Assembly (NCBI GenBank): GCA_039621445.1
Contig: CP154954.1
Coordinates: 18,648,642 to 18,712,641, forward strand
Reading direction: 5' to 3'
DNA length: 64,000 nucleotides
Origin: Euglena gracilis
Lineage: Eukaryota
The position numbers and the translations under genes were made by a program. A model generated the notes under the pieces. It did not search any database. It was not told the DNA's origin and was given only the letters and a program-made list of their open reading frames with translations. The first letter of the stretch is position 1. The number at the start of each line of letters is the position of its first letter. Below are positions 37,001-43,000 of the stretch, piece by piece.

Positions 37001-40000
37001 AAAATAGCCCCCCCCCCTTTCCCCCATAGAGGTCCAGGGCTGGAGCTGGGCCCTGCCCGGGTCGAACGGTACCAAAAAAAAAATCGAAATTGCAAAGATG
37101 TCCAAAAAGCTACCAATTATGCAAAAAACCCCGACCCTTTATTGACCCCTCCAAAAATGTCCTAAACAGCTTTTTTCCGCTTTTCTCCCCTTTTTGACCC
37201 ATTTTTGACCCATTTTTGGACCCCCGAAAATGAAAAATCCGTTATTGTCCAGCCACTGGTGGCTGGAAATAAATAAATCTCGATGGGGGGTAGGGGGATC
37301 CGGGGCTGGAAATGGCTGCTGGCTGGCTGGACCCCCCCGGGGGGTCAAATTTTCTTAAGCAACGCCCTGGTTCCAACCGGTGATGTTGGCAAAGGTCTCC
37401 TTGAAAGATATGGCAAATTATTCAAGAAAAATGTCAGACACATTGGCACGCATTGGCTTTTAATCAGATTTTGCTGTGTTTGTGCCAGGGTGGTCCACAA
37501 GGGATGTAATTTTTTCGTTTTTTCCCCGTTAAGGACCGCTTGCCTTTCATCCCAAGGGCCGGACAGGGGCTCGGACAGGGTCGAAAAGGTTCGAAAACAC
37601 ATTTTTTGATGTTTTTGGTGGATGGGCAATGTCCAAGGGTGCCAGAAATCATTTTTCCCCCTGACGTTGACACTTTTGCCACAACACGGCCATTTTTTCT
37701 GCCATTTTTCCCATGTATTTTTTTTCATTGATTGTGCTGGGACAGCAGAATTTGTTTTTATTTGCTTAATGACCGCCCTGATTTGCATATGTTTGTTCTC
37801 AGATCTGCTTCAAAGGCTTGTTGCTGGAAAAGCAGCAATGAAGAAGCTTTCAACATTACCTCTTCCAACTCTTGCAGCAATTAATGTGTGCTCTTTCTGC
37901 AATCGTTCCTGCAATGTTCCCATGTTGTTTTTTTGGGTCACATGCATGATATTTGCAAGGAATGCAATATATGGCAAGTCTACAGGGGATTGCAGTGTGT
38001 TAAATGACAACTGAAAAAGACACACTGACGGTATGTATTGACATTAATAATAAGTTGAATAATTAAATAATAAATAATGAATAATAGTTGAATTATAAAT
38101 AATAGTTAAATAATAAATTAAATAAGAAATTTTGTTAAATAATTTTTTGGAAGGTTCTTGAAGAGTGCTAAGAACGTTCACAAAATTCCCAGTGCAATTG
38201 CCACTGTTTTTTTGCAGCTTTTCGCACTGCAGTTGTTCGTTCAGCTGCCATGTTGTTCAATTTTTCTCATAAACCTGCAGGAGAGCACAAAAATCTGGTG
38301 TTGGAATTCAGATGGGGAAAAACACATGTTCAAAAGAAACTCACCAATGCCACACCTCATGCACAGCTTTTTCCACACAAAAAAAAGTAGATGTAATTTT
38401 TCAAAACAAGCATCCTTCCCCTCCCCCCCTTTTTAAAAAAATTGTTCAGCCCCCCCCCCCCCGGCTGGCCCAAATTTAGCCAGTTGAAATTCTTTTCGGA
38501 CTCTCCGGGGGGGGGGGGTCTGCTTGCACCGGGGGTACCTTGGAGGGGGTCTGCTAACCCCAGCAGGGCTTGCTGGTGGAAAAAGCGCAAAATGTCGAAA
38601 TCTTTTTTGCGGGCCCTTTTTGACCAAAGGCGGAGGTGTGCCAACTTGGATCAGAAAGCTGAATGTTCAAAAAGATGGGCAAACAAAAAAGAAAACACGA
38701 GAGAGGTTATAAAGTGGAGATGATCCCAACTTTTTATTCTGCACTTCATAAAAACATTCTCTTGTCATCCATTTCCATTCCATACCCTGACTAGATGGCT
38801 GGAAAAGATTGATTAAACACCTGTGTGACCCGACCCCCTGGGGAGGGTTGGTTGGGGGCCGCTGGACCCCTGCCCTTCATCCCTCCAGGGGTGAGGTGTG
38901 AAATGGGGCAGATTTTGACCCATCAGAAGGCCGCTCTGTAATTGTTTTTTCAAGGTTTTCGGCCGACTTTGGCTGGATATTGGGTGGGCAGAAACCCCCC
39001 CCGGGGGGGGTTGTGTGTGAGTGGGTTTGGGCCAGGGGGTTTTTAAGTCTTGGACCCCCTCCCCCAGGGGGGGAGGGTGGGTGGGTCCCTTGGACCCCCC
39101 TCCCTCCCCCAGGGGGGGGTGGGGGTAGGGGCTGGTGGGTATATCTTTTTCGGCGCCAAAGGCGCCGCAATTTTTTTAAAAGGTGCTTTTTAGCATTTTT
39201 GGCCATTTTCGGGCAAAAGTGGGTGGGTCCCCCGGGATCCCCGCCCTCCCCCGGGGGGGCACCACCCCAGAGGGTGGGTGTGCCGACCCCCCTCCCCCCC
39301 CCCCGGTCTTAAAAAAAAAACCCTGGTTTGGGCCCGGGAAAAGTACCCCGCGCCAGTAGTTCCGGGGGGGGTGAGTAAGTGAAATTATGGATGAGATTCA
39401 CCATCAACCACTCTTAAGGATTAGAGGAAGGATAGCTGTTTTGAACAATGCACAGCCTTGGGAGGTTCTTCCCACGCTTTCCTGTCCGGCCCTGTGCTGC
39501 CTGCGACCGCCTCTCCACAGGGAGATGCTTTGGGTGGAGGGCTGGAAATTGCCCTTGCCTGCGATTACCGCGTGGTGGCCGCTTCGGCCAAGCACAACCT
39601 CGGCCTGCCCGAGACCATGCTGGGCGTGGTCCCTGGGCTCGGCGGAACGGTCCGGACGCCGCGCCTGATCGGGCCAGGGCTGGACGGGAGTTGTTGTGTG
39701 CTGTATTTTTGTCAGTTGTAATGAAGATTTTAGCAAAAAAGGCAACTCAATGTTTCAAAAAAAAATGGTCAGAATGGACGTCTAATGGTCGATTTGTGAT
39801 TTATTGCAAAATAAAATTCATTGCAAAATAAAACCCAAAACCCTGGCAATATGACGCAACCCCGTCTTTGAGATTGTGGGTGGATGGTGGAGGGTGGTCG
39901 GGTCCAACCCAGGCCATCTTGTATTTCCGGGGGTGCAGATTTTTTGGGCAAAATTTTCTTTCGGCGCTGAAAGAATTTTTCCGTGCGAAGTGTGGTGGTG

Positions 40001-43000
40001 GGTGGGGGTGAACCCCCCCCCCCCCCGGTGGGAGGTCGATTCCCCCCTACCAGGCCTTCCTGCACAGCCCTGGATCGGGCTGCAGAACGCGCTGACCTAC
40101 ATCCTGCCGGGGAAGAACATGAAGCCGGCCAAGGCGAAGTCGATGGGGCTGGTGGACGCCCTCCTGGAGGACGAGGACCGTTTCGAAGGAGAAAACAGGT
40201 CCCCCCCTCCCCCATGTCCAATGAACGCCCTTGCCCGATGAACAGGGGGTGTCCGGACGTCCAGATTGTCACCATGCCCCTTGCACACACAATACGCAAA
40301 CCCCCATGCCCAATGAACGCCCGCCCCCATCTGGACCGTCTGGGCTTGGGGGGGGGGGAAGAAAATGGATGCATTGGCTGGCTGTTGTTTTTTTTGTTAT
40401 TTTTCCAGGTTTTCACAAGCATATGCCAGTGAAGTTGTTATTTTTAATTGATCATTGAAGGCCGAAACTCTTAGCTGAACCCCTGAGACTGTCACCACAA
40501 GGGCGTCGCTCGAGCCGGCGCCCCCCCCCCCGTGGAAGGGGGGATGGGGAAATTCTGTTTTTGGCAGGGCGGTCCATAAGACGGGAAGTTTTTTATCCTT
40601 GAGGACCGTCCTCCAAGGTCCGCCCTCAGGCCTCAGCCCCTTAGGATTGGGGCTTGAACGGGAAAGATCAAAAAAGTCGAGAAACACGCTTTTTGACGTT
40701 TTAGGGATGCCAGAAATCACTTTTTTCCCGAAGTCGACTCGTTTCTGTAAAATATGGCCATTTTTCGGCCATTTTTTTTCCTATGGATTTTTCATTGAAT
40801 GTGCTGGGACCAGACAATTTTTTAAGCACTGTCCCCCCCCTCGGGGGGGTGACTGACTGGTTTTTTCAGAGACTGGTTTTGGGCCTGGACCCCCCCCCCC
40901 CGGGGGGGGGTTGGCCAGGGGTGGGCAAAAGTGGCTTGAGTGACCCCGGTGCCAAAGGCGCCGGGAAAATTTTTTTGGCCTAAAATGGCCTAAAGTGACT
41001 GGAAGGTGGCCGTTTTTTGAGTGGCCGACCCCCCCCCCGGGGGGGGGTAGTGACTGACTGGCTTCCAAAAAAAAGTGACTGACTGGTTTTTCAAAAAGTG
41101 GGTGACCCCCCCCCTCCCCCCCGGGGGGTCGGTAAAAAAATGGCTGGGACGTCATGGTTTTCAATTTTTTTTTTGTTCGTTGTTTGGTCCCTCTTTGCAG
41201 GTGGTTACCTTTTTGTAAATAGAGAGAGAGGAGAGAATTATCATTGCACAGTATTTTCAATTATTATCTCCTGCTATTTTTATTTGCTTTGAGAGCATTC
41301 GCGTTTTTTTTTGCATATTTTTCATGTTTTCCATTTTGGGTGCAAATCTGGTGTTCGTTAATTTGTTGTTGTTGTTTTTGCATTTGAGTTATTACAGCTG
41401 GTGCCCTCTGTCTTGGAAATGATTGACTGATTCTCGCAAAAAATGACAGAGTTCATGAAACTGTTTGATAGAATTTCCTGAACGTTTTGACAGGGTTTTT
41501 TGATTTTTTTTTGACAAGGTTTTGGAACAAAGTGACGTTTCACTTGAAACTTGACATAATTCGCAAAACAGCCCTGTTGCACAAAATGACACATCAATGT
41601 CTCAAATTCTGTATCAATTTCTTCCGTGAAAGTCTGTCAAAATATTTTGTGAATGCTGTCAAAATTTTCAAATGATTTTTGAAAACATTTTAACAACTCT
41701 GTCAAAAGTTCGAAAACCTGTTCTCTGGAGTTGCATAAATAATATCGTTCCGTTCCAACAACAGGGGCGTCAGCTGTGTTATTCATGCATCCAAAGTTTT
41801 TGCTTTCCCCCATTTTTTTTTAAGAAGTAGTCTTGAGGTTCCAGACATGTAATACACCCGAGTATCTGTGCGTAACGAAATTGTGGTTTTGTATCACATT
41901 TTTTTTGAGTATCTGTTGCAATATCTCTCAGCTATTTTGAGGTTTTATTTTGCTTTGCTGTGACAGGTTTTTGGGTGCGGCGCGCATGTATGCTGGGACA
42001 CTGGCTGACAAGCCAAAGCCAAAAGGAGTCCGCAAGGAGAGTTGGATGGATTGGTTCTTGACAAGAACCCCAGTCGGTATGCTTCACAGAAGGAATGGCT
42101 TTCCCCCTGAAGCTTTGAGGGTCACAGAGATCTTATTTTTAAGGTTGGGCTTTGCGAGTGGTGCACACCCACGATATTTTGGTGCTACGATTTTCTGAGC
42201 CCCCCAACTCGGGCCCCCAGAGCAACTGAGCAACCCCTTGCTGCCGGATTTGTTGCGCATGAAGGGGGGGGGGGCGGAATTGCTGGATCTGGAGCACAGA
42301 TGGCGTGACCCCTGGTGGCTGGAGAGATGCTGGGGCACCCAGGGTCCGTCCGCCCCAGCCTTCAAAAGGCAATGTCCAGACCAAAAAATGTTCCAGGGTT
42401 TTCCAGCCCATTTTGGGGGGGTTGGGAGGGTGGTGGTTTTTTTTTGAAAGCACACCCACACAGCCTCCTGGTGGTTTGTGTGTGGGGTCTACCGCTGGGG
42501 GGGGGGGTCCAGCCAGAGCACTTTTTTTTTCCAGCCAGCAGCTCGGACCCCAGGGTACAGTGTCAGGGTGGACAAAAATTACAGGAAGAAATATTCTGCA
42601 GGAAAACATGGAAAAATTCTTATTTTGAACAAAAATTATGGCAGAATTCCAATTTCAGGAAACTGGTGGAACTTTTTTTCGGGTGTAATGAAAATCTTTG
42701 GCAAAACAGAAAAACAGAATTCCAAAAATGGCTAGAGTGGATTTCTGGTGGCCGGACAGGGGACTTATCTGGGCGTTTGCATTTGTGGTAAAAGGTGACA
42801 AACCAGACACTCCTGTTTATTGGGCTAGGGTATTAGACATGGGGTATCCTCCCCCGGTGTATCCTGCCCAGCAATTTTAAGAAAACCCCCGTTTGTGGGT
42901 GTTCTTCAAAAAAAAAGAGTAGGTAGTAGTGGGTAGGTGTGGGTCAGGTCATTTAGTGAATCCATGACCTGGAACCCCATTGGTGTCAGCTACATTGTGG

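Follow-up and report, generated by a model that had tools for sequence, protein, structure and literature searches.

Intron 5 of the trifunctional-enzyme alpha gene of Euglena gracilis (39672..40077, plus strand, 406 nt) is a real, efficiently removed intron with no GT-AG borders, and it very probably consists of a non-autonomous cut-and-paste DNA transposon (MITE) together with one copy of its 8-bp target duplication (TSD), the two being removed precisely by the nonconventional (NC) splicing of euglenids. The gene encodes an enoyl-CoA hydratase/3-hydroxyacyl-CoA dehydrogenase of fatty-acid oxidation, and the element lies within its exon sequence. A transposon origin of the intron is well supported, probably through a DNA transposition event. 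All positions are those of the window, that is, the whole 64-kb stretch of DNA that was analysed.

The 8-mer GATCGGGC is present at 39667-39674 and again at 40073-40080, both on the plus strand, with a start-to-start spacing of 406 and 100% identity (repeat analysis, family D12). Between the two copies lies a non-coding, MITE-like element of 398 bp with terminal inverted repeats (TIRs) (39675..40072, no strand assigned), supported by the sequence, the repeat analysis and the DNA contig depth, which begins with CAGGGCTG (39675-39682) and ends with CAGCCCTG (40065-40072). The 5' TIR (39675..39689, plus strand; CAGGGCTG perfect) and the 3' TIR (40058..40072, plus strand; ending in ...CAGCCCTG) constitute the inverted-repeat pair I1, whose extended arms (39674-39689 and 40058-40073) are 16 nt long and 81% complementary (13/16), the terminal positions being perfect at 8/8. 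The element was scored as small and without coding capacity on the basis of its length and of the lack of any Rfam family within 39675-40072. The TSD, with an 8/8 match, abuts the TIRs directly, as the fixed-length duplication of a MITE does. In addition, the MFE and centroid folds are predicted to pair the intron ends, with a whole-sequence z of just -2.2. The 8-bp repeat that the original prediction had described around a TIR element inside a coding motif was borne out to the base.

Could such a repeat have arisen by chance in an old NC intron in which repeats accumulated later? Short junction repeats occur in 84.4% of E. agilis introns, according to the part of PMC12501133 cited here, and the introns of the present gene are rich in dispersed repeats. 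However, the chance that an 8-mer is repeated exactly at a set distance is p = 4^-8 = 1.5e-5 per intron (~3e-4 for all 20 introns that the gene has in the window), the repeat adjoins the TIR ends exactly, and the length of 8 recurs at three other elements, so that chance is an extremely improbable explanation.

The removal of the intron was observed directly in RNA. The RNA joint 39666->40073 skips exactly 406 nt, with an 8-nt ambiguity, and the skip is carried by 70 reads (28+42) with 59 starts in the raw RNA run X21 and by one contig of run X15, possibly an RNA run, versus none in the DNA runs X1 and X13, which may both come from one strain. The intron is present in the contigs of these DNA runs (39300-40024 and 40044-40247), and RNA depth is ~1 in the intron-only bin versus ~117 on exon 5. 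The coding flanks were mapped by tblastn with the best homologue, P0002, and by junction modelling: exon 5 (39521..39671, plus strand; tblastn with P0002) ends according to the NC register within a sliding range of 39666-39674, and exon 6 (40078..40198, plus strand; tblastn with P0002 and junction modelling) starts according to the same register. Deletion of the 406 nt in silico gives a protein identical to P0002 across the 49 aa scored. Both expectations about the mature transcript thus held: reads join across the exact 406-nt removal with no GT-AG, and the coding sequence is restored exactly, the intron that is gone from RNA being the TIR element plus one 8-bp copy.

The other introns of the gene are mostly of the ordinary kind, and dispersed repeats fill them. 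Upstream of exon 5 the RNA joint 37885->39521 is GT..AG, and downstream of exon 6 so is the joint 40194->41963 (cut +4); altogether, 16 other introns of the same gene are GT-AG-compatible, with clear GT[GA]TG...YAG ends. Three further nonconventional introns, 13, 18a and 18b, appear not to fit the N3-CAG/CTG-N5 code, and their flanking 8-mers match at 5/8, 4/8 and 7/8, respectively, at junctions predicted from the sequence.

For intron 5, GT/GC-AG and AT-AC borders are absent from all nine equivalent registers (9/9), and the joint ends are GA..TG. Only the register 39672-40077, GGC-CAG...CTG-GATCG|G, is compatible with the NC motif 5'-N3CDG-/-CH'GN5-6|R, a code established by knock-in mutagenesis in the work reported in PMC12501133, and base 40078 is G, a purine as the code has it for the first downstream exon base. 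In this register GATCG of the 5' TSD copy is exonic and GGC intronic, while in the 3' copy GATCG is intronic and GGC exonic. The proposed geometry of CAG at +4..+6 and CTG at -8..-6 therefore fits, its 3- and 5-nt flanks adding up to one copy of the repeat. All nine registers yield an identical mRNA and an identical circle; because they give one mRNA, the 5+3 cut cannot be observed for this intron, and we infer that register solely from the published code. Euglenid NC introns leave as a full-length circle, with no lariat, after the conventional introns (PMC11282704), and among the joints listed here, the best 15 of 531, there was no circle junction.

An ordinary or relaxed spliceosome acting on non-canonical sites, with the CAG/CTG geometry incidental, might also remove such an intron. 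Work on diplonemids and tunicates, as presented in the part of PMC12621601 cited, favours adaptable spliceosomes. Against this stand the absence of the spliceosomal dinucleotides from every register, the clear conventional ends of the 16 other introns and the agreement of intron 5 with every part of the mutagenesis-defined code; a spliceosomal removal is accordingly regarded as quite improbable.

The preferred reading, insertion of a MITE followed by NC splicing, would proceed as follows. A MITE with TIRs starting CAGGGCTG would have entered the coding sequence ...CTG ATC GGG CTG CAG... and duplicated the 8-bp target GATCGGGC. NC splicing would recognise the paired CAG/CTG ends of the transcript and would place its cuts 3 nt before CAG and 5 nt after CTG, so that the element and one duplication copy (406 nt) would leave and the pre-insertion reading frame would be re-created. 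Exactly one copy would be removed because 3 + 5 = 8, which is the length of the duplication.

The window contains other elements of similar build. A scan for CA[GT]...[CA]TG pairs (threshold, TIR of at least 9/12) gave 2945 pairs, with flanking repeats of 8/8 in 4 and of 7/8 in 7, whereas 20 Markov shuffles gave 0 with 8/8 flanks for a mean of ~2473 pairs. The three other perfect-TSD elements, for which no strand was assigned, are MITE 'A' (33108..33988, 881 bp, in conventional intron 2; perfect 17-nt TIR CAGGCTTGTGCTTAAGG and perfect 8-bp TSD GGTGGGAT), MITE 'D' (34510..34812, 303 bp; TIR family as in MITE 'A', perfect 8-bp TSD GTCCAGAG) and MITE 'B' (39033..39325, 293 bp, in conventional intron 4; CAGGGGG...CCCTG, perfect 8-bp TSD GTTTGGGC). 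MITE 'B' is very abundant in DNA contigs, with a summed depth of 46,000-138,000 versus a baseline of ~30-44, although summed contig depth is not copy number. Since these three perfect cases sit in conventional GT-AG introns, the 8-bp duplication comes with the elements rather than with splicing.

These elements also bear on double-strand-break repair, in which a staggered break would capture filler DNA with no transposition. This reading has a precedent, in that the 8-nt junction repeat of E. agilis gapC was read as a break-repair product in the main text of Milanowski et al. (2016, PMC4770533), and a piece of a repeat could serve as filler DNA. However, both borders of the filler would have to fall exactly on inverted CAGGGCTG termini, the family terminus at which two other copies stop as well, and three more CAGG-ended non-coding elements have perfect repeats of length 8, as against 0 in the 20 shuffles; break repair is thus very improbable here.

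Membership of the element in dispersed repeat DNA, a part of the original prediction, was confirmed both by copies in the window and by a pile-up of contigs. Its 3' part had been said to recur at ~54720 and, inverted, at ~30090; both copies were found, and the shared 3' module is ~135 nt long (39940..40072, plus strand), with similarity ending at the terminus. One related copy lies in conventional intron 16 (54680..54828, plus strand) and ends ...CAGCCCGG, its part 54709-54826 being 78% alike over 119 nt (E 9e-20). The other lies inverted in conventional intron 2 (30090..30215, minus strand), with the terminus CAGGGCAG at 30090; its part 30090-30132 is 79% alike over 43 nt, and the alignment reaches ~30215. 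All three copies lose similarity at the ...GCCCTG terminus, and the first 16 nt of the element's 5' end resemble the family terminus at 30090. Neither a partner end nor a matching 8-mer (at most 1 mismatch) was found for the two relatives in the window, and no second full-length copy of the element's family, complete at both ends and bearing a duplication of its own, turned up in the 64 kb. DNA contigs at least 80% alike stack over the whole element and not over the exons, and position 39772, in the 5' half, is covered by 22 (X1) and 20 (X13) DNA contigs, mostly with a different base. The summed contig depth, which does not equal copy number, is 17-20x, 33-43x and 190-348x that of the exon bin in the three bins of the element; since the depth is so uneven, the 3' part being much more highly repeated than the 5' one, the element could be composite.

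The superfamily of the element is less certain than its transposon nature. Assignment specifically to a hAT-superfamily MITE is a tentative one, to which we give somewhat less than an even chance. Typical hAT elements have an 8-bp TSD and the terminal motif YARNG according to the sections of PMC3014272 cited here, and the element agrees with this in its 8-bp TSD and in the CAGGG at both ends; moreover, it is like hAT MITEs of that source in its short TIR, its lack of coding sequence and its length of a few hundred bp, and the hAT TIRs in its table (CAGGGGTCCCC..., TAGGCTTG...) are similar to the termini of MITEs 'B' and 'A'/'D'. However, the TSDs lack the hAT-type target pattern: the four perfect ones (GGTGGGAT, GTCCAGAG, GTTTGGGC and GATCGGGC) depart from the NTNNNNAN-type patterns given in those sections, with T at position 2 in 2/4 and A at position 7 in 2/4 in this small sample; in GATCGGGC these two positions are A and G, respectively. 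Furthermore, of the 110 ORFs in the window that reach 130 aa, 20 were scanned and gave no transposase domain, and neither a hAT transposase nor an autonomous partner was found among them. Of the earlier label 'hAT-type', the 8-bp TSD and the YARNG end stand, while the missing transposase, the misfit of the TSD pattern and the fact that 8-bp duplications are made by other superfamilies too, Merlin among them, count against it.

A MITE from another superfamily with 8-bp TSDs, such as Merlin, a P-like one or an undescribed one, is a less likely candidate. Merlin ends typically begin with GG, not with CAG, which counts against Merlin. On the other side, Merlin is documented in E. gracilis and makes 8-bp TSDs (PMC8101967, in the part cited), as found here, and the N5-6 of the NC code would allow a total of 8-9 nt, equal to the 8-9 bp range of Merlin in the same source. 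Merlin TIRs are described there as near-perfect, and the E. gracilis Merlin copies encode a transposase, unlike the present element.

As to its age, the insertion had been called young, a label that the data do not establish. No intron-less (empty) allele was found in 2/2 DNA runs (X1 and X13, possibly one strain), so the insertion is deduced rather than observed; in addition, the relatives in the window are only ~78% alike, and the 8 unconstrained TSD positions, all unchanged, bound the age weakly. Intron 4 of gapC in E. agilis ACOI 323 (PMC4770533) is also an NC intron with eight-nucleotide direct junction repeats, but for that one strain specificity, and with it a recent gain, was demonstrated, and no repeat family or TIR-bounded element is reported for it in the main text of that paper.

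Intron 5 resembles other euglenid NC introns (Nomura et al. 2025; Milanowski et al. 2014/2016) in having no GT-AG, CAG at +4..+6, CTG at -8..-6, paired ends, a downstream purine, a 'slidable' junction and conventional introns in the same gene. What sets it apart from the published NC introns is that its body can be linked to a dispersed family of TIR repeats and that its junction can slide over 8 full nucleotides, a stretch directly adjoining the TIRs. Slidable introns had been set aside when the published code was worked out, and the origin of NC introns is called 'unclear' in the part of PMC12501133 cited. The introners of Micromonas, dinoflagellates and Fritillaria (PMC11282704) are likewise transposons with TIRs and TSDs that enter an exon and are born spliceable, the TSD forming part of the splice junction. 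They depend, however, on the U2 spliceosome and on GT/GC-AG or variant dinucleotides, whereas intron 5 has the CAG/CTG stem rule with fixed offsets of 3 and 5 nt; besides, introners are defined by near-identical copies across many genes (PMC11282704), and the likeness here is drawn from one locus in one 64-kb window.

The idea of a MITE origin and a recently gained intron with an 8-nt repeat had both been published earlier; intron 5 adds a clean, RNA-verified example to these, not a new principle. It is nevertheless conceivable, though on balance we lean against it, that the NC code (N3-CAG...CTG-N5) is the RNA image of the insertion geometry of one type of transposon, with a CAG-ended TIR and an 8-bp duplication. 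If this were true, each such MITE landing in a transcribed exon would be born spliceable, and the NC machinery would perform at the RNA level a 'precise excision' that re-creates the empty site. Moreover, most NC introns, which make up 72% of E. agilis introns, would descend from the CAG-ended TIR class, and their junction repeats would decay from 8 nt as the introns age.

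The removal of intron 5 of the trifunctional-enzyme alpha gene is directly visible in RNA. Four of the 24 listed runs were aligned to 37700-42200, comprising raw reads of one RNA run, contigs of a probable RNA set and contigs of two DNA runs. A joint from 39666 to 40073, which skips 406 nt with ends GA..TG and eight ambiguous letters, was found in 28 + 42 raw RNA reads with 59 start positions and in one contig of the probable RNA set. The same joint was absent from both DNA runs, whose contigs retain the intron (39300-40024 and 40044-40247, with 0-1 differences), and the adjacent introns 4 and 6 are joined at GT..AG in these RNA runs. 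The junction foreseen in the original prediction is thus carried by 70 raw RNA reads. The removal is efficient, since RNA depth falls from about 117 over exon 5 to about 1 in the bin 39814-39964, which holds only intron.

The host gene runs along the + strand from 27871 past 62461, as located by tblastn with P0002, a 775-aa EukProt transcriptome protein which has enoyl-CoA hydratase and 3-hydroxyacyl-CoA dehydrogenase domains and is the exon's best match in the database (98% identity over 51 aa). Junction modelling gave 21 exons and 20 introns within the window. Of the 20 introns, 16 can be read with GT-AG ends (12 according to a script and four checked separately), whereas introns 5, 13, 18a and 18b cannot. 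The exon flanks of intron 5 translate to a crotonase-fold motif, and after the 406 nt are taken out the translation matches P0002 at all 49 residues scored; conventional ends were found in none of the nine equivalent registers. Both the coding-motif setting and the lack of GT-AG ends had been expected, and both hold. The homologue P0002, the kinds of intron present and the agreement with published work together point to a euglenid origin of the sequence.

Sequence reading and a repeat finder agree on the anatomy of the insert, with the coordinates first proposed for TSD, TIR ends and element. Two copies of GATCGGGC (39667-39674 and 40073-40080, spacing 406) enclose an element of 398 bp, which begins with CAGGGCTG (39675-39682) and ends with CAGCCCTG (40065-40072), and the repeat finder extends the inverted arms to 16 nt at 81% (39674-39689 and 40058-40073); the site carrying the insert is CTGATCGGGCTGCAG. 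An Rfam search of 38800-41200 gave 19 matches, all below the gathering score and none inside 39675-40072.

The transposon nature of this insert is indicated by its neighbours. An anchored scan of the window for CA[GT]...[CA]TG pairs 40-6000 bp apart with at least 9/12 matching ends gave 2945 pairs, seven with 7/8 flanking repeats and four with 8/8, and no 8/8 case occurred in 20 first-order Markov shuffles (mean about 2473 pairs). Those with 8/8 are the intron 5 element, element A (33108-33988, TSD GGTGGGAT, a 17-nt perfect TIR CAGGCTTGTGCTTAAGG), element D (34510-34812, TSD GTCCAGAG, of the same TIR family as A) and element B (39033-39325, 293 bp, in intron 4, TSD GTTTGGGC, ends CAGGGGG.../...CCCTG). 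Elements A, D and B are all within conventional introns, and therefore the 8-bp repeat is a property of the elements and not of nonconventional (NC) splicing. In addition, the 3' module, which is the last ~135 nt of the element, aligns with 54680-54828 and with 30090-30215 on the reverse strand, as the dispersed and partly inverted recurrence in the original prediction implied; in all three copies the similarity ends at ...GCCCTG with unrelated flanks, and the first 16 nt at the 5' end of the element resemble this family terminus. Furthermore, DNA contigs at least 80% alike accumulate on the element, with summed depths of 576/764, 1225/1452 and 9990/8350 across three bins versus 28.7/43.9 on exon 5, a summed contig depth not being a copy number; at 39772, 22 and 20 DNA contigs overlap, most of them with a differing base. 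Since this depth is uneven, the 3' module must be much commoner than the rest of the element. No partner ends or TSDs were found at ≤1 mismatch for the 54.8-kb and 30.09-kb relatives or for the CAGGGCTGG start at 54882, no second complete copy of the 39675-40072 family with its own duplication was recovered within the window, and a metagenome scan with the family-2 terminus pattern gave no matches. From the recurring 8-bp TSDs, the family terminus and the contig accumulation, the proposed transposon origin of intron 5 is strongly supported and in our judgment very probable.

Other repeats are also present in the window. An unanchored TSD/TIR scan, that is, one lacking the CA[GT] anchor, gave 56 matches, for the most part palindromes, and was dominated by nested long palindromes and inverted repeats at 8896-13879, 31769-33007 and 48792-50612 (cores CCCTAGGG, TCGGCCGA and TGCGCGCA/TTGCGCAA). 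Element B and 40720-41172 in intron 6 are extremely abundant repeats, their summed DNA contig depth being 46,000-500,000 versus a baseline of ~30-44. Two elements of another family (18649-19028 and 19446-19897) have CATAG(T/C)TGGC ends, a TIR of 10/12 and flanking 8-mers matching at 7/8 (TCCGGGAG/TCCAGGAG and CTCCAAGG/CCCCAAGG), and a 323-bp element at 54350-54672, with ends CAGACAATTTTT/CATACAATTTTT (11/12) and flanking 8-mers GTCGGGGG/GTCAGGGG (7/8), lies within conventional intron 16 and adjoins a relative of the 3' module. Just upstream of the gene, a C-rich block at 20228-25857 (+), with GC 0.58-0.62, GC skew down to -0.47 and overlapping long ORFs, gave Pfam matches at 21-25 kb to Dam DNA N6-adenine methyltransferase (E 5.6e-8), to Phage_integrase tyrosine recombinase (E 1.7e-7) and, below threshold, to RVT_1; the combination of these three suggests a DIRS-like tyrosine-recombinase retroelement.

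As for the superfamily, hAT elements are typified by an 8-bp TSD and a YARNG terminus (PMC3014272). The designation of the intron 5 element as hAT-type is favoured by its 8-bp TSD and by its terminus CAGGG, which agrees with YARNG, and the TIRs of the window elements resemble those of hAT elements tabulated in the same paper; however, the four perfect TSDs do not follow hAT-type target patterns, and no transposase was detected by Pfam in 20 of the 110 window ORFs of at least 130 aa. Moreover, E. gracilis is known to carry Merlin elements, whose TSDs are likewise 8 bp long (PMC8101967). For these three reasons no firm assignment is made, and hAT is the leading but unproven superfamily, its chance being put at a little under even. 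A 3-kb candidate element at 16081-19149 has no ORF longer than 155 aa. According to the main text of the E. gracilis genome paper, which gives no superfamily breakdown, DNA elements constitute 4.60% of the genome, and when the limited library was searched on hAT and transposases in connection with Euglena NC introns, only the Merlin paper came up.

The NC splicing code was established in E. gracilis by knock-in mutagenesis as 5'-N3CDG-/-CH'GN5-6|R, with a 5' spacer of strictly 3 nt and a 3' spacer of preferentially 5 nt (PMC12501133). Intron 5 in the register 39672-40077 reads GGC-CAG...CTG-GATCG|G, which agrees with all terms of the code, and its ends pair in the predicted RNA fold. For an element that starts with CAG, ends with CTG and is flanked by an 8-bp duplication, a 3/5 cut would take out the element together with one duplication copy. 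The arithmetic of the proposed 5+3 split is exact for intron 5, but the position of the cut is unobservable here because nine registers yield identical mRNA and would yield an identical circle. Slidable introns of this kind make up 69.1% of NC introns and were left out before the code was derived (PMC12501133), and the main text of that paper does not tie 3+5 to the length of a duplication. Position 6 is G in all four perfect TSDs, and a 3/5 cut makes this base the start of the downstream exon; with n = 4 this is only a hint.

Three further introns lack GT-AG compatibility. The probable NC intron 13 (about 47570-51292, 3723 nt) has a 5-nt junction repeat CTGGA, ends CATGGTACC.../...GGTGCCCTG, flanking 8-mers matching at 5/8 and the 5' motif CAT, not CAG. 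Intron 18a (about 55685-56419) has ends CTGCCAAT.../...ATTGCCAG which pair from the first base, and it is separated by a mini-exon at about 56420-56446 (some 22-28 nt, encoding GQMLLQGA) from the probable NC intron 18b (about 56447-58909), whose 2455-bp insert has inverted ends GCGGCGGGATGG/GCACGGCAGGATGG with a 2-nt indel and flanks AGCGGACC/AGAGGACC (7/8). The three were tried as followers of the N3-CDG/CH'G-N5 code, and the fit failed for each.

The insertion had been proposed to be young, which is possible but not demonstrated. Only 8/16 positions of the duplication escape coding constraint, so its perfection is barely informative on age; relatives of the element in the window are ~78% alike, and no intron-less allele was seen in the two DNA runs, both of them perhaps from a single strain.

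The MITE origin of NC introns was proposed in 2014 from inverted repeats and 'TSD-like' repeats (PMC3935182), and was put forward again in a 2024 review, which draws the TIR as CAG/CTG with 'TSD-like' junction repeats and contains neither 'hAT' nor '8 bp'/'8-bp' (PMC11282704), and in the discussion of the 2025 PNAS paper; the origin is still described as unclear in the 2025 genome-scale study (PMC12501133). An NC intron described in 2016 from E. agilis gapC is strain-specific and has junction repeats of eight nucleotides, which were read as a scar of double-strand-break repair (PMC4770533); a TSD is an alternative reading of them. Among the main texts of the limited library searched, no paper was found which places an NC intron in a concrete, named repeat family, reports elements of this geometry beyond exons or notes that 3+5 matches the length of the duplication. 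Relative to this literature, the new points are an RNA-verified NC intron with a body that is a member of a dispersed TIR family, intron limits equal to the element plus one 8-bp duplication, and sister elements with the 8-bp geometry in non-coding DNA. Intron 5 is a particularly clean and testable specimen of the published MITE hypothesis. Because the experimentally fixed spacers of 3 and 5 nt sum to the duplication length, this hypothesis becomes simple to test across the genome, through junction repeats of exactly 8 nt in excess, through membership of a family and through an autonomous partner. The locus also suggests that the slidable introns left out when the code was derived are the young, informative ones. 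Intron 5 bears on both the origin of euglenid NC introns and the machinery which removes them.
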